NCBI GenBank assembly: GCA_958009085.1
Contig: OY253669.1
Location: forward strand, 992,001 to 1,056,000
DNA length: 64,000 bases
Direction: 5' to 3'
Source of the DNA: Protoeuglena noctilucae
Taxonomy: Eukaryota
Position 1 is the stretch's first letter. Every line of letters begins with the position of its first letter. Below, in pieces: positions 2,055-64,000 of the stretch. Made by a program: the position numbers and the translations under genes. Below the pieces are notes generated by a model, which saw nothing but the letters and a program-made list of their open reading frames with translations, ran no database searches and was not told where the DNA came from.

Positions 2055-5000
2055 TCACTGCTTCGCATCGTGAGAGAACAGGCACCGGCTCCCGAAACGG
2101 CACCCCTGCGCAGTGCCGAAGAAGCGGCAAGGCGTGGACACCCGCCGCTCGGGCAAGCTGGGTCGACGCCGCGAGCGGCCCTGGTCCCTCCCGCGCGGGC
2201 TATCCCTCTCCCTGTCCCTATCCCGGTCCCGCTCCCGGTCTCGACCCCTGCCCCGACGATCGTCCCTGCGACCCCAGCCCTCGCCGCCCTCATCCCAGTC
2301 GCGACATGCACCCCATGCGTCCCCCCCGCCACGCCCCCGGTCCCTCGCAAGCCCACCCTCGTCCTCTCGTGCCCCCCAAGCATCTCCCTGCTCGCCCCTG
2401 CCCTCCTCAGAGCCCCACCGGGACCGTTTCCCCAACACCCCCGCACCCGCACCCGGCAATGCACCCCCCAAGCCCTGCTGAGGCTCCGGGTAGGGTGGCT
2501 GCCCCGGCGCCACTACGGCACCGCCCCACGGCTCCCGGCCGAGCGCAGCCTCGAGGGAGGCAAGGGCACCCGTGTCGAGACCGATTGTGCTGGGCGGTCC
2601 CATCGGGGGTGCCGCGGGGGGCCGGGGCTGCATCACGGAGGGCGGCGGGGCGGCGGCGCTCTCCGGGCCCCCGCTCACCGCTGCCAGGATGCCGGCGAGG
2701 TCGCTGGCGCGTGGCAGGGCCGGCGCCGGCGCGCTGGCCGGCTCGGTTGCCTTTCGCAAAATGCTCTCCAAGTCAATGGTGGCTAAGAGCGACTCGGGCC
2801 CCGCGACGACGTCGGCGGGTGCTGTCTGCGGCGCGCTCGCTGGGTAGGGCGCCGCGGCCGGCGCCGGCAGCGGCGTGGGAGGCGGTGGGTCGTCCGGCTC
2901 TGCGGGGTCATCGTCGGCCCTGTGGTTCCAGGTCCGCGCGAGCATCGACCGCTGCGCCTGTTCCAAGCGGTCCAAGGACTCCTCCCCGCGAGCCAGTGGG
3001 AGCGCCAGGAACGCCTCGCCCGCCTCGTACGGCAGCGGCTCCACCCACGAGACCTGCTGGTCCACCATGTCCTCCAGGCGCTCATCCAAGGCGAACTGCT
3101 CGTCTTCGTGCTCCTGCGGGGCGCGGAGGAGCGGCGCGGGGGTGGCGCTGGCGCAGGCAAGCGGGCGGGCGGGAGCGGGGCGGCCCACCGATCCCGCACC
3201 ATGACCCCGCGTAGGCAGCTTGGTGGCCAGGGGGCCCAGGCGTCCCGCCCCCGCGCGCCGCTGGGGCGCCACGCTCACCTTGCGGATGTTGCTGATCATC
3301 TGGAATTCGAGGATGTGCTCGTTCTGCGCCGCCAGCGAGAAGCCCGACGAGACGGTGGCGTTGTTCGCACGCATGCGGGCCTCGGCCAGGGCGGCAGCGT
3401 CCGGGTCGCTCTTGGCGTTGGCCGGCAAGTCGTTTTCTAGGAACAGCCGCGTTGCCACCAGGTCCTCCGTTCGCCCACCCGCCCGTTGGTCGGCCCACGA
3501 CACTGTCTTGTCGCGCTTCCTCTTCCGAGGCGGCCCGTCTGACAGCCTCGCGACGGGCGCGTCCGAGGCCGACGCCTCCGCCCCGAACGCAGAGCCCCCA
3601 CCCTTGGGCGTCCCCGCGCTTTTGCCCCCGGCCCCCGAGAGCCCACCCCAGGGCGACAGCACCGAGTCTTCCTTGGTCTCGCTCAACAGCGCGTTGAACA
3701 AGCCCTTCTGCCCGAATCTCCCCGCGCGCTGTGGCCTCGGTGCACCCTGCGCCGCCCCCGATCCGCCCGTGGGGGTGGTGGCACCCGCCCCGGCAGACAC
3801 GGGGGAGTGCTCGCCACGGGGGCCAGCCACGGCCGCCGAGGTTTCCCTAGCTGCCGGCAGCGAGATGCGCGGCCTCGCCAGGCCCCCTGCCACGTCACGG
3901 CTCGAGCCTTCGGCCGTCACCGAGGCCGCCCTTCCAGGGTCGGCCCTTGGGTCGGCCCCCGCCGCCGGGCGCTGCTCTTGCGAGCGCACGGAGCCATTTT
4001 GCGGTGCAACCGTCGCTGCCGCAGCGCTGCGGGGTGACCCGGACCCCTGGGGTGCAGCGGCCGTTTCAAGCACGGCGGGTCGCTGGGCCGTGGCAGAGAC
4101 GCTGGGGACTGGGTCAATGGGAAGTGTGACCTCTTCGGGGCTAAGCTTGTCCCCTCCTGCAAGCCATACGCCGCCGGTGACTGTCGCTTTTCCCACGTCT
4201 CCCCCCAATTCGGTGCGGGCGCCCGCGCCCTCCACCGCGCCCCTCTGCTCCTCGCCGCCCACCCCGCCACCGCTTTGATGCACCGCCGGCGCCCCAGCCG
4301 CCTGGGAGGCATCGCTGGGACCCGCCTGCGGGTCCGTGACGGTGCTGGTGTGAAATGCCTGCCCTGTCGCCAGAGGCGCCGTTGCGGAAGCCGAGAGCGG
4401 CTGCGGCGATTCCCGTGCGACAACACTGCGTGAAGGCGAGATGGGGAGGCGGTCCTTCGTTGCGCCCGAGGCACGCACAGCTCTTTTGACAAGGCCCAGT
4501 GTGGGTGGCAGTTGCCGGCCAGCAAGCGCCCGTGGCATCCTGTTCGCTGGCGCGCAATACCTGGGCTTATCATCAGAGGCAGCGGCAGCGTCCCGGGGGC
4601 TCGTTGCGGCCCCGGCCCGGGCCTCTGCGGCAGTGTGCTCCGTCGCACTGCGCCCGGCCGCGGGCGCGCCCTCGGTCCTCGTGGCTTTGCCTGCGGGTGA
4701 GCATTGGGTGCAAACATGTTAGTCAAGGGTGCGCGGCGACGAAGGGCGCGCGTCGGTGGTCGGGGCGCGCAAACGCGGCTGCACCATACACGAGCCGTGC
4801 TTCCAGCTCGCCGGGAGCACACGCGCGTTCTGGCCAGTCGCGAGCCTCACCTGCGCTCAGCATAGCCCTCCATTTGTTCACGAGCTTGGCGGCCGCCTCG
4901 CGGCAGCCCTTGTCCTCGACCTTCTGGACCTGCTTGACCGTCACGCCGACTTTGCTGCTCGCGAGCAGTTCCGTTGAGATCGGGAAGCTCAGCACGGACT

Positions 5001-54775: not shown

Positions 54776-57700
54776 ATGGACGACGCGGCCTCCCTGCTGG
54801 ACAGAGGGCTGAGCATACGCTCTCACCCGATCGATGGGAAAAACTCGGACTCGGATGAGAACGACGTGGGCTTCATCGCGCCATGTGAGCCGTGGAATGA
54901 GCCGTGTTCCGCGTCGACGCCTGTTCCACGCCTCCTGGCCGTAATACTCGCCAGGCTGCTTGATGCCGTCGTCGATAGCTACCAAGCTTGCGAGACTGAC
55001 AATCCCTCACTCCCGCAGCGCGCGCGGCGGGGAGGGAGGCCCAGACGTTCGTCTACACCGCGCGGGTGATGTCTGCGGAGGCCGGGCCGCTCCTGCCCCC
55101 GCCTCGCATGGAGCCGCTGCGCACCGTCCAAGAGGTCATGCAGTGGCAACCGGGCGTGCGGCCGGGCGACTACTTCTGCAGCTCCAGCGTGGAATTGCCG
55201 AGGGACGCGGCGTCTGTGGCGGCCATCTCCGTGCCTGGCCGGCCCCGGCTGCTCGTCTGCCACGACATGATGGGTGGCTACCTGGGTGACGCCCTGACCC
55301 AGGGATGCCCCGACCCCGACGCCTACAAGGTCACCGCCTGGGCCCTCGTAGACACGTTCATGTACTTTTCGCACCACCTATGCACCATCCCTCCGCCCGG
55401 CTGGACAGACGCCGCGCACCGCCACTGCACGCGGGTCCTCGGCACCTTCATTTCCGAGTGGGACGGCGGGGCAGCCGAGTGCGCCAGGGCGTTTGCGACC
55501 GCGGAGTCCGCGGCTGCCCTCGCAGAGAAGCTCGCAGGTGACTGGCTGCCCCGGCCCCTGTCTCGCGAACACCCCTCGCATGACACCTGGCTTACAAAGA
55601 AGCATGGAATCAACTTTGTCTTGCACTCGTCGTGTCACCTCCGTCTTGCAAACTCTCGTGAGACCACCCCAACCCCATGAACACTGGCCCCATGGTGTGA
55701 GCCCCCGCAGAGATTGCGGAGTACTTTGGTTTTGACGGATGGCTGGTCAACATTGAGAACGCGCTGAGCGAGGAGGGCGTGCGGAACATGCAAGTCTTCC
55801 TCACCCGCCTGACGCGGCTGATGAAAGAGGTGCACCCGCTGGGGCAGGTGCTGTGGTACGACGCGGTGACTGTCACGGGGCAGCTGAGGTGGCAGGACAC
55901 GCTGAACGACGCCAACCGGGCCTTCTTCGACTGCTGTGACGGCATCTTCACCAACTACACGTGGCGAGGTGCGTGGCTGGCTCAGCTACATCGACGCAGC
56001 ACAGGCTTGCTAGCCCGTCGTCGGCGGCATTCGGAAACGTGGAGGATTCTCCATGCAACGCAGAGAGCACGCTCGACCAGCTTGCGGAGGCAATGGCTGA
56101 GCATCCCCGGGCCGCGGACGTGTATGTGGGCGTGGATGTGTTTGGGCGTAACACGAGCTACCAGGGCGGGGCAGAGTCTGACCAGGCCGTCCGCGCCGTG
56201 GTCTCCCGGGGCCTCTCCTGCGCCCTCTTCGCCCCCGGTGAGACGCATCGCTGCTTGCCCTGACCTCACCTATTCTCTGCTGACCCTGGCACCGCCACAT
56301 GACATGACTGCACCACCATTGCTGCATTGGACTTTCTTCACTCGATCTCTTGCGCAGGGTGGACCCACGAGTCGGCTCCGATGGCCGGCGACCCACCCCA
56401 GCGCGAGTGGCGTGCCAGGGATGCCACCTTCTGGGACCGCATCCGCCGCTGCATGCGGGTGCCGCGCACGCTCGCGTGCTCGCTGCCCTTCCACACGAAC
56501 TTCTGCCGAGGGGGCGGGCGGTCGTGGTTTGACCAGGGACGCAAGGTCCGCGCCATGCCGTGGTGGTGCCTCTCCGCCCAGTCGCCGCAGCCCCTCTGCG
56601 GCGGCGCTGCCGAGGCCACCACCTGGAACGCAGGCACACGCCACCAGCAGACCGTGCGGGCCCAGCTGTCCGACCGGGTGAGAGCCGCGATTAGCAAAGG
56701 GCCTTGCTATGCTCATCAAGACACCTAGCTCCACTAAAGCGACTGGGACCCTATGGACGTCGATCATGTGCTAGCAAGCGTCAGCTTGTGGAGTTCGGTG
56801 CGTTCCGTTCCCTTTTGTTGACGGATGTGGAATGTTTGACTAGTTCCTTTTACTGTAATCACCCCAGGTGGCCTTCGACGGGAGCGACAGCCTCGAGCTT
56901 TCCGGCGTCATCCCGTGCGGCGCCCGCGTCGAGTTCCGACTCTTCACGACGGGCATCGCCCTGGAGCTCGACAACGCCGGACTCGCTGCGTCCTACACCG
57001 CGCTCCTCACCGCCTCCTCGGACCTGTGGCTCACGCTGTGGATCAGGTGCCAACCGTGCACTCACGTCGCCATCCGATCCTATGACTGATAGACATCACA
57101 TGATGATCTCACAGCGACTGCCGCGGCTCTGGAGACCAATCAGTGAAAGCTTACTGCCACAAGGCTCTCCCGCACGCAGCTTCACGGACCCTGTGCACCC
57201 GAACACGCCTCCGTCCGCCTCCCACCCCAACGGCGCCGGCGCCGCCCTGCGGCAGCCCCACTGCCTCATCCTGCGGGGCGAGGTCGCAGACGCAGACGGG
57301 ACCTTCCGCGGCGCTGTGCTGGGCCCGGATGGGGAGGCTCCGATGCTGGCGACGACGGCAGAGAGGACCGTCTTTGCGCAGTCCAGCCAGGACGAGTGCG
57401 GCGCTCACGAGTCCGCCACGGCCGCCCTCTCCGGTGCGTGTCTCGCTTCTATGTAACTGTGCGAAACTGTCAGCTGAAGCATCATGCGCTAGCTAACTGC
57501 AGCCGCATACCCCGGCGCTGACCCGAGACTCTGCCCCGTCCCCTGCCCCCGCAGAGGCCCTGCAGCGCGCCGCGAAGGCCATCCGCCGCGGCGTGGCCCA
57601 GAGCGGCTCCTACATGGCCAGGGCGAGGGCCGCAGAGGCGCGAACGGGCCCTGGGCCCACGGCGTGGGTGCGCTGGCGTTACGTGGTCTCCGAAATGCAG

Positions 57701-60700
57701 CTCCGCGCCGCCCTGGCCATGCCGGAGGAGATGCCCCTCTCCGCGCTCTCCGTCACCGCCGTCGGCGTCATGTGCGTCCCCACCGCCCTGCATCCCCCGG
57801 GCCCCGGCGTCTCATCCCTGGAGCCCTTTGCCGCCTTCCTCAGGTCCCTGAGCCTCGCCCCCGCGACCCCCGACCTCGCGCGGGGCTCCCCGCCCGCCCA
57901 TGCGTCCGTGGCCGTCACCGACCCCTCCTGCCACGCCGTGTCTCTCGTGGCAGCCCCCGGGGTGGCCATGCCGGTTAGGGTCGAGGGCGGACCGGAGACG
58001 GGCGCTCCCTGCCCCGAATGCACGCTGTCCCTGGACCTGAGGTGGGACCTGCCGGACCCAGAGACCCACCCGCGCCTCCCGGGCCCCGACGTCCTCCTCA
58101 CCCGCGTGCTCGTCTACCTGGAGGGCGACCCCACGCAGGCCAAGGCCGCGGGAGCCGCGCCCTTCTCAAACGGGGCTAAGGAGACCTCAGAGATCGCTCT
58201 GGGCCCCGCCAGTCCCACGGCACGGCCACGCAGCGCCGCGCCCACGCCCGCCTCTGCGCCCGCGCCCCGCACGTCGGATCGGCCGGGGTCCTCCGCCGTC
58301 GCCAGCCGCCTGGGCCCCGCCCGCTCGGTGGCGCCTGCCACGTCGGTCCGGGCCGTGCACGCGACGCCGGCCACGGACCCGCTGGCCTCGCACCCCGAGC
58401 AAGGCGACCACGTCTTCGGCCGCCCCAGGCGCAGGGGATACGCCACGGGGCCGCGCGCGCAGGCCCACCGGCCGGCGATGGCGGGACCCGACAGCCCCAC
58501 CGCCGCCCCGTTCAGCGCCCCTGTGCCGCGCTTCATGCTGCCCACGGCCTCCGCACTGTCCAAGGCGGGCCCGGCGGCCCGCATGCCTTCGGGCATCCCT
58601 CCAGAATCCCTCCCGCGCCTGAGGGGTGCGAGCGGCGCGACGTCCTCGGGGCGCCCGAGCCCCGCACGCAGCCGAGCAGGGTCGCAGCTCCGCGAGCGAT
58701 CGGGTCCCCGCGCGCGGCAGGACAGCCCCATCGTGGCCGCCCTCGACTTGGCCGGTGCGCCGTGGGCGTCCGCGCCCGCACGCGCGCTCCCGATGGACGG
58801 GGGGCAGAGCCAGGGTTCCGCAAACGAGGCCGCCCGCCGCGCCCACGCCGGCGCCGGTGCGGGCGCGGACGACGTGGGCGACCGGGTGGTGCAGCGGCAG
58901 CTCCTGCAAGAGTTTCTGGAACTCGAGCGACTCACACAGGCACCCAAGGGTGCAGGCACGGGTGCGGGGGAGGAAGCATCGGCGCTGCGGCTGCGGGGCG
59001 GGCACCGCAGCGAGGCGGGGAGCTCGTGCGCAGGGAGCGATGCGGGGGAGGGCCAGGAAGCGGCCGCGTCCGAGTACGGCCCCGCACCGTCGTCGGTCGC
59101 CTTCAAGGCTGTCACCTCCCCGGGACCCTCACTGGCACCGTCGCGGCCCTGGGTCCCCTCGGGAAACGCCCGTTCGCTCCGATCGAATGCCTCAGCAGGT
59201 GCGGAGAGAGCCCAGGGACGTCCGCACCCGGCGGCCGTGTACGTCGTTGCCCCAGCAGCGTCCCCGCCGCGCCCCGCCACGCCCACCCGCGAGGCATCCC
59301 GGGCAAGTCTCGGCACGGGCACCTCGGCGCCTGCCCACGTTTGCGGGGGCGCCGCTTACCCGGTGCACGAGTGCCCGGCATGCTCGGCAAACGTGTCCGA
59401 GCACGCGGTGCGGCCGAGGGGCAGCGTTACCGAGTCTTCCGTGCGCCCTGCGTCCCCGACGCACTGCGAGGCGCGGGCCGGTCGCCAGGGCGGCGCGGAG
59501 GGCGTCGGGGTGCGGTCGTGGCCTCGGCGGACAGCCGAGGGTGCAGAGGCGGGGTCAACGAACGCCCGCCGCCTGACTTACACGTCAGCCCTGGACAGGA
59601 TGGTTGCTGGCATCGCGGCGGTGTCGCAGGAGCGTGATCCGGGCACTGCAGTGCGCGAGGAGACGGGTGTGGGGATGATCTGTGGGGCCGAAGGCGGCGA
59701 GGGCGGAGGGGCCGGGGTGGAGGGCTCGTGGGAGGTGGAAGGGGCGCCGCGGGGGGCAGAGAGGGATGGGCTGCCGAAGATCTCGGCCGGTGCGATGGGA
59801 GTCGAGGGTGGGGTGGCTGTGGGCGGGGAGGGTGGGAGTCACACCGCGTGTGAGGATGCAAGCGGTGCGGCTCATGTTCGTGACACGGAGGCGAGGGGAG
59901 GGGCTAGTGTTGGGGCGGGGCGGCTGCCGAGCCTTGACCCTGGAGAGAAGGGTCGCCCGCCCATTGAGCCTGGCGAGCTGGGAAGCACGGGTGGGGTGGC
60001 GACGGAGCCAGGCGAGCGCCTGGGCCAGGCGCATGATGGGTGCGTCGTGGCGAGCCTGCATGAGGAACAGAGCGTGGAGAGGGCCGGGGCTTTGCTGTCT
60101 CGTCAGGAAGCAGGAATCGGGTCCCATGACTCGCCAGCCGGCGCAAGGGTGGAGATGGAGGCCCTTGCAGCGACTGTGGACGGCACGACGTCAGCCGTGG
60201 CAGTGATGCAGCCGTCGGTCGAGGCGATGACCGATGCCCCATCGACTGTGCTGATCAGAGACCCGGTCGCTGCTGCCGCGGGCACCAGTGGGGGTGACGA
60301 TGTGGGCTCGGATGCTCTGCCTGAGCAGGGCTGTGAGCTGGGCGCGGATGTGGGCCCTGAGGCGGGTGCGGCGGTGGAGGGTGTCTTTGGGGTGGTGGGT
60401 GTGGTGATGAAGGGCCCTGGTGCAGTGGAGGATGCCATTGGGGAGGGTGCTGTGGTGCAGGGTACCCTGGGGGAGGGTGCTGTGGTCGATCATGCCGGGG
60501 TGGTGGAGAGCGATGTGGCGGGAGAGCGCGAGGAGGGTTTGAGGGGCACTGCAGTGATCGTCGAGCATCCTGACGCTGCTTATGCTTCCACGGCAGAGGC
60601 GCCGGTAGGGGTCACGGGGGTCGCTGGGGTGGCCTCTGCTCCCCGTGACGCTGACGTGAAGAGCGAGGGCGTTGCAGAAGCACGGGCCACAACCACGGGC

Positions 60701-63700
60701 ACACCCGCGCTCGTGGGTGGGGAAGATGTGACTGGGCTCGAGACCCCAGGTCAGGCTGGGACAGCAGGCGTGGGTGGTAGCGGCAGTGGTCGGGCTGAGG
60801 AGAGGGGTGGGGCGGACGGGGTGGCAGCTGAGATGGTGTCCGAGCGTGGAGCTGCTGACAAGGGGCCGGAGGGCTTGGATGGGCAACTGCAGGTGGAGGG
60901 GCAAGGGCGGATGGAGAGTGATGCGCAGCGGGGGAGCGCCGTGCTGGATGAGGGGCCGCAGTTGGCAACGGGGAGTGAAGATGGGGTGGGTCCGAGTCAT
61001 GTCACTGTGTCAGCACTGGAAGAGGGCAAGGTGGACGTGGTGGCAGTGACTTATTGGGATCCACACTGCGCGTCTCAACAGACCGCTTCTGTGACGATGC
61101 CGGTGGCACCAGAGAGGAAGGTACAACCAACCACAGACGCGGCTGATGCCGTGGAGACCGGGCGAGACCGAGGCGTGGGTCCCGCCGCAGATAAGCGTGA
61201 CCCTCGCGGCCAGGCCCAACTGGACTCCACCGGCCCTTTGGGATCCTCCCACGCTGCCGGCGATGCCCCGGCAGCAGACACAGTGTGTGTGACAGCGGTG
61301 GTCACAGAGCCACTGCCGTCTGGGGACGCGCAGACAGGTCCAGCCGGTGCGTTGTCGGGGGTCAGTGGCGATGGTGCGACGGTCAATGCGCCGGTCGAAG
61401 GCAAGGGCGCGCACTGCGCAGTCCATGAGCCAGTAGCAGCCACCGCAGAGGGCGCAACGCTTGATGCATCAGGTGGAGGCACTGACGAGGGCGTGGCGAC
61501 GCATGGGGCACCAGACACGCTCAGGCCAGCCGCAGTGGCAGACGATTGCCTTCCATCCCACTTTGCCACGCTTGACGAGGCCCCATCTCCCAGCGAAGAA
61601 GCTGGGCACCGACGCAGCAGCCCGGGCGGCGACGGGCGCGTGGATGCAGCACCCGTGGCTGTTCTGGCAGTTCCGGCACCACCCCAGCACGGTGCAGTAA
61701 CAGACGCGTTACCGATTGTTGGTGAGACCTTGGTTGGGACCCCAGCACAGGGCGAGGCTGACCCTGACGTGCTCCCTCGAGACCACGTCACGCCTCCATC
61801 GGTTGCCCTGGCTGATCTCTCACGCCACTCTGACTTGCCCGGCGGGGCTGCGGAGGGCGCTGGGGTCGTCGCCTTGGCGGCCGGCGATGCGTTCCTGGCT
61901 GACAGCCAGGCAGGCTTCGTTGAGACAGCAAACGTGCCCTGCGCCACGGGCACCGGCAACACGGATGCCGCCCTGATATCAAGCCCTGCGATGGGTGGCC
62001 AGCTGGCATCTGCAGAGGAGCATCAGCCACCCTCGGATGCGGGGGAGGCGCAGGCGCGGCTCAGCACAGCATCGGGGGCAGCCAGCACGCAGGCCGAGCA
62101 AGCAAGCAACAATGAGGGTGGCGACGTGGATGCGGGTGATGCGGTGGAACCTCATGCTCAGAGTGACCGGGGCAGCCTTGCCAGCGATGGCGGGGCCATC
62201 GGCTTGCACGCGTCAACAGCGGGCCTGGAGATGACTCACAGGCAGCGCTCGGTACCCGAACCTAAAACAGCGACGCTCAGCTCTCCGCGCGTTGCACAGT
62301 CGGGGCCAGAGGAGGCGGTGGTGGGGAGCGAGAGCAAGAGTGGGTGCGCAGACAGCGAGGTGCTACCTGAGCCATTGCTTGCGGCCACCACACGCCCACA
62401 AGCGGCCGAGGGAGATGCGGGGCGGAGCGCGGTCATCCGCCGCGCTCCTTCGCATCGCGCCAGTGCGGGTGCCGTGGCTGGGACAAGTGATGTGACCGGG
62501 ACAGGTGGGGCTGACGGCGTGGCCCTGGGTGCGGGCGAGGAGGGCACAGCCCCAGTGGGGTTGGCTGTACGTGTTGCCGGGGAGAGGGACGTCCGAGAGG
62601 GTGTGGCCATTGGTGCTGCCGAGGACGCCACTGCGTCAGTAGGTGTGGCTGGGCCTGAGGCGGCTACGACTGAGAAGGCGACGGAAAGGGCGGGGGCGAG
62701 TGTGGTCGTGGGCTCCAGACAAGGCGCGGCCATCGACACAGCGAGCGAAGCGCCTGAACGCTGTGACCAGGATGATGCTGCAGCGTCGGCTTGCGAGGTG
62801 ATGCTGGGCTGTGGCAAACATAACGCTTCCAGCGTCGCACAGCTCATGCCAAGGCACTCGTCTCAAACACCGCAATGTACCGTGCATGCGCAGGTCCCTG
62901 GGCAGCCCGTGGGGAGGGCGGAGTCGCTGTCGGCGCCGCAGAGCAGGGCTGAGGCTGTGCAGACTGATGTTACGCCGAGTGCGCACGGTGTGGCACAGAC
63001 GGATGCCATGCCGAGCGCACATTGGGCTGCGCAGACAGATGCGACACCGAGCGCACATGGCGTGGCCCAAACCAACGCCCTACCGAGCATGCATGGGGTG
63101 GCGCAGACAGATGCTGTGCCGAACGTACACGGGGCCGCACAGACGGAGGCTGTGCCGAGCGCACACAGTGTGGCCCAAACAGAGGCTGTGCCGAGCGCAC
63201 ATGGGGTGGCACAGACGGAGCAAGCGATCGTGCCGCAAGAGGGCGCTATGCCGATTGCGATGTCGACCACGGCTGAGGTGGTCATGCAGACGCCGTGCGG
63301 CCCCAAGGCTCACGATCACGGAATCGTCACAGCCTCGAGGGTCACGAGCGTGCAGACGGACGGCGTCGCTTCAATCCACCGCTCCGTGCAGACGGATCCG
63401 ATCACCCCATCGCCTCCGTCCCTGCCAGTCACTGCGGACATTCCGATACGGGACGCAGCCGGCCCACTCTCCGCCGCCTATCCATCGCTTTCGCAGTCCA
63501 AGCAAGCCCTCCCGCGGCCGGCGCGCTCCCCAGCGGTCGCGACGCCCGCGTTTGCCAGCACCCGTGCGCTCTCGGGAGTGCAGCGGCTCCGGGGAGGCGG
63601 CCAGGTCGGCGACGATTCCGTTTCGGGTTCCCAGAGCGGCTCACCGGACGCGCCAGACCGGGCTGGGCAACACGAGGTGCGCGACATGCAAGCCAGATCG

Positions 63701-64000
63701 GGCGGACCCCCGGTTGCAATTGGTCCCCAGCAGAGCAGCCCGGGACCGGTGGAAGCTGGCTTGCCATCGCCGACACCGGCAGACCCGCCCTCAACTGCCC
63801 AGCGGTCCACGGGGCTGCCACCGAGACACGACGGGATCGCGACTGGGGCGGGTGGCGTGACTGGGGCGAGTGGCGTGGTTACTGGGGCAGGTGCTAGGTC
63901 GGTTGTGGACTCACCAGACGGCTGGGACGGCGCAGCTGCGGCCGGGAGTGCGCAGGAGGAACCGAGGAGCCACGAGCTGGAGGATGCGAGGAGTATAATC
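54776..64000 (+). CDS. ENGASE: Cytosolic endo-beta-N-acetylglucosaminidase (GH85 ENGase) with a >2,000-aa low-complexity extension; 3'-partial
   Basis: Inferred exons 54776-54884, 55019-55537, 55711-55968, ~56064-56237, ~56359-56677, 56868-57046, 57180-57433, 57555->64000. GH85 motifs LLVCHDMMGGY, YFSHH..TIPP.GW..AAHRH...VLGTFISEW, YFGFDGWLVNIEN (catalytic N-x-E), VLWYDAVT..G.L.WQ..LN, DGIFTNYTW, VYVGVDVFGR, ALFAPGW. The last exon has no stop before the window end. Confidence 0.88.
62957..63220 (+). repeat. 36-bp (12-aa) coding tandem repeat, ~7.5 units, consensus V-A-Q-T-D/E-A-V-P-S-A-H-G
   Basis: Translation VQTDVTPSAHG VAQTDAMPSAHW AAQTDATPSAHG VAQTNALPSMHG VAQTDAVPNVHG AAQTEAVPSAHS VAQTEAVPSAHG VAQTE. 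Confidence 0.9.

Follow-up and report, generated by a model that had tools for sequence, protein, structure and literature searches.

What reads a long string of QT motifs in the tail of a giant algal protein? The question is raised by a 64,000-nucleotide (nt) stretch of the Protoeuglena noctilucae genome (hereafter the window; GenBank assembly GCA_958009085.1, contig OY253669.1, positions 992,001 to 1,056,000, forward strand), in which an earlier note, made from the letters alone, had described eleven xQT motifs resembling multivalent binding sites for the dynein light chain LC8. All eleven are present at 62954-63397 (+) in the frame of the open reading frame (ORF) 57497..64000+, with sequences exactly as listed there: AVQTD, VAQTD, AAQTD, VAQTN, VAQTD, AAQTE, VAQTE, VAQTE, VMQTP, SVQTD and SVQTD. 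We find that they belong to a selected and expressed string of eleven 12-residue short-linear-motif units, predicted to be disordered, in the tail of a giant protein. The host is probably a cytosolic ENGase (endo-beta-N-acetylglucosaminidase), to judge from the exons that precede it. By motif comparison LC8 is the leading candidate partner of the array; we put at about 40% the probability that LC8 docks there, nucleated at the VQT units, with the AQT units acting as weak, avidity-dependent sites.

At the DNA level, Tandem Repeats Finder reports a repeat at 62960-63216 with a period of 36 nt, 7.1 copies, 71% matches and a 108-nt super-period; it consists of seven full copies and one partial copy (unit 8). 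The rows for the 36/108-nt repeat score 199-260, against at most 67 for the other 11 rows in 57000-64000, and the QT array is the only well-supported periodic repeat of the 6.5-kb frame. Q, T, P and H are invariant in all seven full units, S and A nearly so. The invariant His per unit noted earlier thus holds for the seven full units, but it fails in the truncated or diverged unit 8, where Q takes the His position; His is also found in two of the four diverged units. Q and T are retained in 11/11 units, the three decayed ones included, and their being best kept in decayed copies points to QT as the functional core. The three motifs that had been placed outside the DNA repeat do lie beyond the called tandem repeat but are not independent of it: judged by their register, units 9-11 are diverged, decayed copies of the same 12-residue unit as units 1-8. 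Counted by eye from Q, unit 10 retains the D, S and H of the consensus QT[DE]AxPSAH and unit 11 the D. Successive QT pairs are spaced by 12 residues seven times, then by 25, 22 and 12. The frame contains 14 QT in total, 11 of them inside 145 residues; in 20,000 composition shuffles, at least 14 QT were reached 5 times, and at least 3 QT in a given 61-residue stretch 7 times. Since 8 of the 11 motifs come from one duplication series, the independent events are fewer than 11.

The array is carried by spliced RNA. Contig 25 of RNA run X7 (1,429 nt) covers 62042-62795 and 62892-63566, skipping 96 nt at an intron, and crosses the whole array without a further joint; the spliced junction identifies this contig as RNA. 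Because the intron has no stop codon, ORF-based gene calls read through it. The ORF-called proteins P0002 and P0003 carry 32 extra intron-encoded residues that are absent from the mRNA, and the SSQTP of the ORF-based call is not in the protein, one of its residues being intron-encoded. The stretch was also found in marine metagenomes and metatranscriptomes, as well as in runs labelled organism A. When the seven full units were compared pairwise, 38, 50 and 137 differences fell at codon positions 1, 2 and 3, respectively, and in the array frame the proportions of synonymous and non-synonymous differences (pS and pN) were 0.645 and 0.184, giving a pN/pS of 0.29. The corresponding ratio is 1.0-1.46 in four of the five other frames and 0.33 in the antisense frame that shares wobble positions. 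An antisense reading (- strand) was rejected: its ORF has only 148 codons, and the GT..AG splice signals are on the + strand. Plus-strand splicing, together with the contrast to the four other frames, bears out the premise that the exon is translated as proposed. Given the high pS, the low pN/pS and the concentration of differences at codon position 3, the units are old duplicates held by purifying selection at the protein level. The remark that synonymous codons vary while QT is retained was likewise correct: Q is encoded by CAG five times and CAA twice, and T by ACA three times, ACG twice, and ACT and ACC once each. The Ala preceding Q, kept in 6/7 full units, uses GCA, GCG and GCC twice each. 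We saw no sequence variation, with 0 differing letters across the 4 runs compared with the window and 0 differences in the 3 contigs of a run labelled organism B; P0003, the second cluster member, equals P0002 except at its start and adds no variation.

An AlphaFold2 single-sequence model of 62894-63598, which is a weak test, has a mean predicted local distance difference test score (pLDDT) of 42.5 and no secondary structure, and the array region is predicted to be intrinsically disordered. LC8 motifs are expected in disordered regions and without internal Pro; here 0/11 8-mers have Pro at -5..+1, the disorder being that of the single-sequence model.

We then compared the units with the published motif rules, counting by hand against 79 validated binder 8-mers (Table S4 of PMC6607443) in place of LC8Pred scores. 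According to Jespersen et al. 2019 (PMC6607443), the LC8 anchor has Q at position 0 and a mid-sized hydrogen-bonding or hydrophobic residue (T, V or I) at -1 and +1; position +2 is P, D or E (strand-breaking or acidic) and not hydrophobic; -3 is large and often K/R; -2 has no bulky aromatic residue; -4 is polar, with no hydrophobic residue larger than Ala; and the 8-mer lacks internal Pro. At +2 the array has D in six units, E in three, P in one and N in one, i.e., D/E/P in 10/11. At -4 there is H in eight units (5/79 binders, acceptable), A or E in two, and V in unit 10 (0/79). The three VQT units resemble the validated binders SON RCVSVQTD, MAST1 RHQSVQTE and ZFPM1 SDKGVQTP (PMC6607443); the SVQTD core of units 10-11 is the core of the SON peptide, and the MAST1 peptide is also close. 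Only unit 11 passes every flanking-position rule, and on motif comparison units 10 and 11 are the two most LC8-like sites. A 12-residue spacing corresponds to an 8-residue motif plus a 4-residue linker, which is within the linker range described for ASCIZ. The claimed resemblance to LC8 sites therefore stands in part: the invariant QT, position +2, the linkers, the predicted disorder and the three VQT units agree with it, while A or M at -1 in 8/11 units and poor residues at -2 and -3 do not.

If LC8 is the partner, the array would act as a multivalent docking strip for this dimeric hub protein. The competent sites would be the adjacent C-terminal units 10 and 11 (SVQTD), possibly joined by unit 1 (AVQTD); LC8 dimers captured there would align two tails in register. 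The other eight units, seven AQT and one MQT, would bind weakly, become occupied through avidity alone and lengthen the duplex. Weak sites that depend on multivalency are a known failing of LC8 motif prediction (PMC12057147). The stricter version, in which all eleven units, AQT included, are occupied by LC8 dimers, we regard as improbable. Were it true, a 12-residue "ruler" would zip two enzyme tails into a rod of ~11 beads, the valency would equal the human ASCIZ record, and the LC8 anchor would extend to Ala at -1 with rigid spacing; arrays in an oomycete, a hemichordate and uncultured eukaryotes (see below) would then be independent inventions of a 12-residue LC8 ruler. To our knowledge, LC8 is the only known reader of tandem QT-anchored motifs that can be named.

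An LC8 protein (P0168) from a metagenome contig of 66% GC matches PF01221 with an E value of 1.4e-43 and is identical to mammalian DYNLL2 at 82/87 positions; the motif rules in the literature can thus be expected to apply in GC-rich marine eukaryotes as well. Metagenome loci with a conserved LC8 motif numbered 47 (L001-L047), and 32 of them contain a complete intronless LC8 ORF; 14 of these 32 are distinct, 82-97% identical to the first. At the remaining loci, as read from translations, the gene is intron-split or cut by contig ends. We also predicted the structure of a complex of two copies of LC8 (L047:1045-1308) with two copies of a 39-residue AQT-only segment (62972-63088), the VQT units being left out. 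The predictions scored 0.49, 0.02 and 0.47, compared with 0.38 and 0.45 for controls with an unrelated partner, and thus speak neither for nor against binding.

Similar arrays were recovered from other organisms. An exhaustive HMMER search with 62600-63997 as the query returned 44 proteins at E<=1e-3; all 43 non-self matches cover the repeat part only, and most are unrelated 12-residue repeats such as the python acrosin-like WAQASTLPSAHT. At least four QT are present in 11/43, and at least four canonical [TVI]QT anchors with QT[DEP] at a spacing of 12-14 residues in 4/43 (P0010, P0020, P0038 and P0046, with 4-10 anchors each). These four share with the window array the 12-14-residue QT spacing and QT[DE]. 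Individual features of the window unit recur as well: P-S-x-H at +5..+8 in P0010, H-G at -4/-3 in P0046, and V at -2, G at -3 and A-x-P after QTD in P0038. Position -1 differs, being I, T or V in 6/7 QT of P0010, 6/8 of P0046, 4/4 of P0038 and 10/19 of P0020, whereas the window array has V in 3/11 and no T or I. The units of P0046 (TQTD four times, AQTD twice and VQT twice, one VQTD and one VQTN) stand on an H-G-x-x-Q-T-D skeleton, with AQT among TQT units. The host proteins are unrelated to the window protein and uncharacterized, so they serve as analogies only; being unrelated, they seem to have converged on the 12-residue QT spacing. All four look like unannotated multivalent LC8 clients.

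A number of observations weigh against LC8 docking. The anchor rule holds in the three units with V at -1 (1, 10 and 11) and fails in eight (A in seven, M in one), and deviation from the anchor yields non-binders (PMC6607443). The caveat of the earlier note that Ala at -1 in seven copies is non-canonical was well founded, A occurring at that position in 0/79 validated binders. At -3 there is G in five units (1/79 binders) and R in unit 11, the remaining five having S, W, E, V or T, once each; at -2 there is V in six (0/79 binders), A in three and S in two. IRS1 VDTAAQTN, the only AQT peptide tested in the data set of PMC6607443, showed no binding by isothermal titration calorimetry; IRS1 AAQTN was recovered by LC8 phage display, under avidity, and the authors allow for binding weaker than 40 uM (PMC6607443). 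Our full-text literature search, whose coverage leaves out subscription journals, found no paper with "LC8" and "AQT" together as whole words. The whole 2,167-residue frame is without any TQT or IQT. Since Ala at -1 is kept via three synonymous codons, AQT itself is selected and not merely tolerated. In the linker, P, S, A and H show the same degree of conservation as QT, a pattern that LC8 arrays are not known to have and that suggests recognition of the entire 12-mer. The LC8 examined here is metagenome-derived and may not be the host's. The array is not a family feature, as the 120 ENGase homologues listed contain 1 QT at the median and 4 at most, and neither word-indexed nor exhaustive HMMER searches found an orthologue with this tail or with the array flanks; in the word-indexed searches (proteins of 1,191-3,793 residues), residues 1700-2167 and residues 30-260 each retrieved only the window's own protein. 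Finally, the period shared with the arrays of other organisms is partly selection bias, because the search query is itself 12-periodic.

The conservation of the linker leads to the possibility that the array serves as a multivalent docking strip for some partner other than LC8, one that recognizes most of the 12-mer (AQT[DE]AxPSAH), its resemblance to LC8 sites being partial and coincidental. The preservation of Ala at -1 through GCA, GCG and GCC, the P and H invariant and the S and A nearly invariant across 7/7 units, and the pN/pS of 0.29 all agree with such a reader, as does the fact that selection covers more than the LC8 8-mer and includes residues that LC8 disfavours. Against it, the decayed units hold Q and T best (11/11) and lose PSA, and the arrays of other organisms on the same skeleton bear canonical LC8 anchors; nor is any reader of an AQT[DE] or PSAH motif known to us, although no search for one was made. 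We consider such a partner somewhat unlikely.

The same pattern of conservation bears on whether the array needs a specific partner at all. It could be a disordered spacer, or a low-complexity expansion of the sort typical for algal genes rich in GC, retained only for bulk properties such as charge, flexibility or solubility, and this would suit a ~1,900-residue tail without a Pfam domain and without a homologue in the searches run, the drop in GC content at third codon positions (GC3) from 0.90 to 0.60-0.71 along the frame, and ENGase homologues that lack the tail. Selection on bulk properties is not expected to produce position-specific conservation, though, and here four residues are invariant, with pS at 0.645 (near saturation) against a pN of 0.184; moreover, QT persists in otherwise decayed units, and no other well-supported periodic repeat exists in the 6.5-kb frame. 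In our estimate, a mere spacer is unlikely. Very unlikely is a structure formed by the units themselves, either a repeat fold or a His-based metal-binding ladder with one His per 12 residues. The His invariant in 7/7 full units and present in 2/4 diverged units, as well as the regular 12-residue period, could be read that way, but the AlphaFold2 model has a pLDDT of 42.5 and neither helix nor strand (weak evidence, coming from a single-sequence model), the composition is rich in A, P, S and G, and a 12-residue unit that has a single His but lacks Cys, Asp or another His would make a poor metal site. Also provisionally set aside were SQ/TQ cluster sites of ATM/ATR, whose two residues stand in the opposite order in AQT; caspase-like xxxD cleavage, a pattern broken by the N, E and P variants; and phospho-Thr motifs of the CK2 or FHA type. 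LC8 docking nucleated at the VQT units remains the reading we favour.

The frame that carries the array runs on the + strand from 57497 past the window end and has 2,167 codons, ending 34 codons beyond the window (P0002 extends 34 residues). The window has a GC content of 64-75%. Upstream of the frame lie exons of a GH85 cytosolic ENGase. The GH85 catalytic domain is encoded by the exon at 55701-55985 (Pfam PF03644, E 1.1e-32); 158 homologues from plants and green algae, named ENGase at source, match the N-terminal ENGase exon at E<=1e-10, with 55-61% identity in the best hits; and an RNA contig contains a spliced joint, 56676->56867, with GT..AG within the ENGase exons. The C terminus of an ENGase profile aligns with residues 55-188 of the giant frame at an hhalign probability of 52% (E 1.4e-4). 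BLASTP of the N terminus of the frame against two ENGases gave no significant match, and none of the RNA contigs listed bridges 57089 to 57600. A contig of RNA run X12 (57196-57625, +) has a 24-letter loose end of CACCCT repeats before 57196, where the intron between the ENGase exons and the giant exon is expected. From the order and alignment of these exons, the giant exon likely comprises the ENGase C terminus plus a tail of ~1,900 residues and belongs to the same gene as the GH85 exons. No Pfam match was found in the tail, and the ENGase homologues lack it. Along 57497-63999, GC3 is 0.88-0.90 in the first 1.2 kb and falls to 0.60-0.71 in the tail, with GC1 steady at 0.70-0.81, consistent with a folded, conserved start that gives way to a disordered tail evolving fast.

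The giant frame also contains RLRG[GA] three times (+), as PRLRGAS at 58616-58630, LRLRGGH at 58988-59002 and QRLRGGG at 63584-63598, in each case with a partly acidic stretch rich in Ser and Gly after it. Ubiquitin ends in RLRGG; two copies of this sequence were observed in the frame against ~0.007 expected by chance (a hand estimate from the frame composition). The array had been described as lying between the two RLRGG sites, which is literally true (58988-59002 and 63584-63598) but says little, because the first site is ~1,320 residues upstream of the array. Other genes of the window (hydroxyproline O-arabinosyltransferase (HPAT), SMC, AAA ATPase, mitochondrial carrier and condensin Cnd1) fit a green-lineage alga. 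Pfam matches in the long ORFs of 20159-53617 are aminotransferase class I/II, HPAT with a PAN domain, SMC N-terminal (two ORFs), AAA ATPase with lid, zf-MYND, TPR, mitochondrial carrier and the condensin Cnd1 N-terminal domain; a CCCH zinc finger (Pfam) is at 2055-4718 on the - strand.

Table 1. Features of the array and its host frame, 8-mers of the units with residues unseen among 79 validated LC8 binders, residue counts in those binders (PMC6607443), and arrays of other organisms
Feature	Coordinates	Strand	Description
Units 1-7, full 36-nt/12-residue	62954..63205	+	Consensus (V/A)AQT(D/E)AxPSAHG; anchor VQT in unit 1, AQT in units 2-7
Unit 8, VAQTEQAIVPQE	63206..63241	+	QT(E) head retained (VAQTE); tail diverged, without His
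Unit 9, VMQTPCGPKAHD	63281..63316	+	Decayed copy; Q, T, P(+5), A(+7) and H(+8) retained in register (by eye)
Units 10 and 11, SVQTDGVASIHR and SVQTDPITPSPP	63347..63418	+	Adjacent, spacing 12 residues; 8-mers RVTSVQTD and IHRSVQTD
Intron, phase-0, GT..AG, 96 nt	62798..62893	+	GT at 62798-9, AG at 62892-3; just upstream of the array
Array-bearing exon	62894..64000 (continues to window end)	+	RNA contigs 62892-63566, 63545-63813 and 63882-64000
Upstream part of giant frame	57497..62797	+	First ~200 residues look folded; remainder A/G/P/S/V/E-rich tail
GH85 cytosolic ENGase exons	55105..57089	+	Pfam, homologues and ORF translations in ENGase order
Unit 11, IHRSVQTD			None unseen at all 8 positions
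Unit 10, RVTSVQTD			V at -4 unseen
Unit 1, RAEAVQTD			E at -3 unseen
Units 2, 4, 5 and 8, xHGVAQTx			V at -2 and A at -1 unseen; G at -3 rare
Units 4 and 5, extra deviations			Unit 5, M at variable -5 unseen; unit 4, N at +2 in 1/79
Unit 7, AHSVAQTE			V at -2 and A at -1 unseen
Unit 3, AHWAAQTD			W at -3 and A at -1 unseen
Unit 6, VHGAAQTE			A at -1 unseen; G at -3 rare
Unit 9, AEVVMQTP			V at -2 and M at -1 unseen
Binders (n=79), position -1			T 62, I 7, V 6, S 4, A 0, M 0
Binders (n=79), position -2			S 20, A 7, V 0
Binders (n=79), position -3			T 11, R 7, V 7, S 4, G 1, W 0, E 0
Binders (n=79), position -4			H 5, E 4, A 3, V 0
P0010, Pythium oligandrum TMW68367.1			Hypothetical protein; C[ITV]QT[ED]xVPSEHQ
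P0020, Ptychodera flava XP_070559511.1			Uncharacterized AAA protein
P0038, metagenome			VIQTDALPKAFG
P0046, metagenome			Source name carboxypeptidase C; ATQTDSAVMTHG

A natural, periodic and selected array with QT fixed and Ala at -1 offers a clean test of whether avidity rescues off-consensus anchors. Should LC8 bind, LC8-driven dimerization would reach an enzyme that processes glycans in a marine alga, and the clients outside animals and fungi would gain one of very high valency. Should it not bind, the array would mark the motif AQT[DE]AxPSAH as being under clear selection with another reader. Practical consequences are modest either way.

Among known LC8 clients, the closest parallel is ASCIZ/ATMIN (11 sites in human, 7 in Drosophila), which like the window array has many QT motifs in a disordered C-terminal region with short linkers. 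Human ASCIZ, with its 11 sites, has "the most by far" among LC8 clients (Clark et al. 2018, PMC5963919), a number that the eleven sites of the window array would equal. ASCIZ linkers include ones of 1, 3, 6 and 9 residues, the short ones giving stable duplexes (Walker et al. 2023, PMC10046861). ASCIZ fills weak non-canonical sites only in the multivalent context, its TMT motif being undetectable as a free peptide and occupied in that context (PMC5963919); the AQT units of the window would parallel this. In Drosophila ASCIZ, QT4 (tSAHMYTQTC, dissociation constant 15 uM) has S-A-H at -6..-4 in common with the window units. The differences are considerable: apart from one TMT and one VQV, the anchors of ASCIZ are TQT, their linkers vary irregularly from 1 to 41 residues (PMC10046861) and they do not form a tandem DNA repeat, whereas the window array has 7 AQT anchors, and its units are sequence repeats spaced by 12 residues. 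The hosts also differ, an enzyme tail in the window and a zinc-finger transcription factor in ASCIZ, and the HMMER search revealed no sequence homology between them.

In yeast Nup159, closely spaced tandem QT motifs stack 5 LC8/Dyn2 dimers as "beads on a string" into a rigid rod that pairs two chains (PMC5963919). That stacking was shown experimentally, whereas the window array is known from its sequence; the likeness is one of architecture. A green-algal LC8 client exists in Chlamydomonas RSP3, which has several N-terminal motifs; in one of them, RHIDIQTD, H occupies -4 and D occupies +2, as in the window units (PMC6607443). RSP3 differs in its anchors (TQT, IQT and TQI), in being a flagellar structural protein and in having sites that do not form a tandem repeat. 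Multivalent tandem LC8 clients are thus already known; a strictly periodic, AQT-dominated array in the tail of an algal ENGase would be new.

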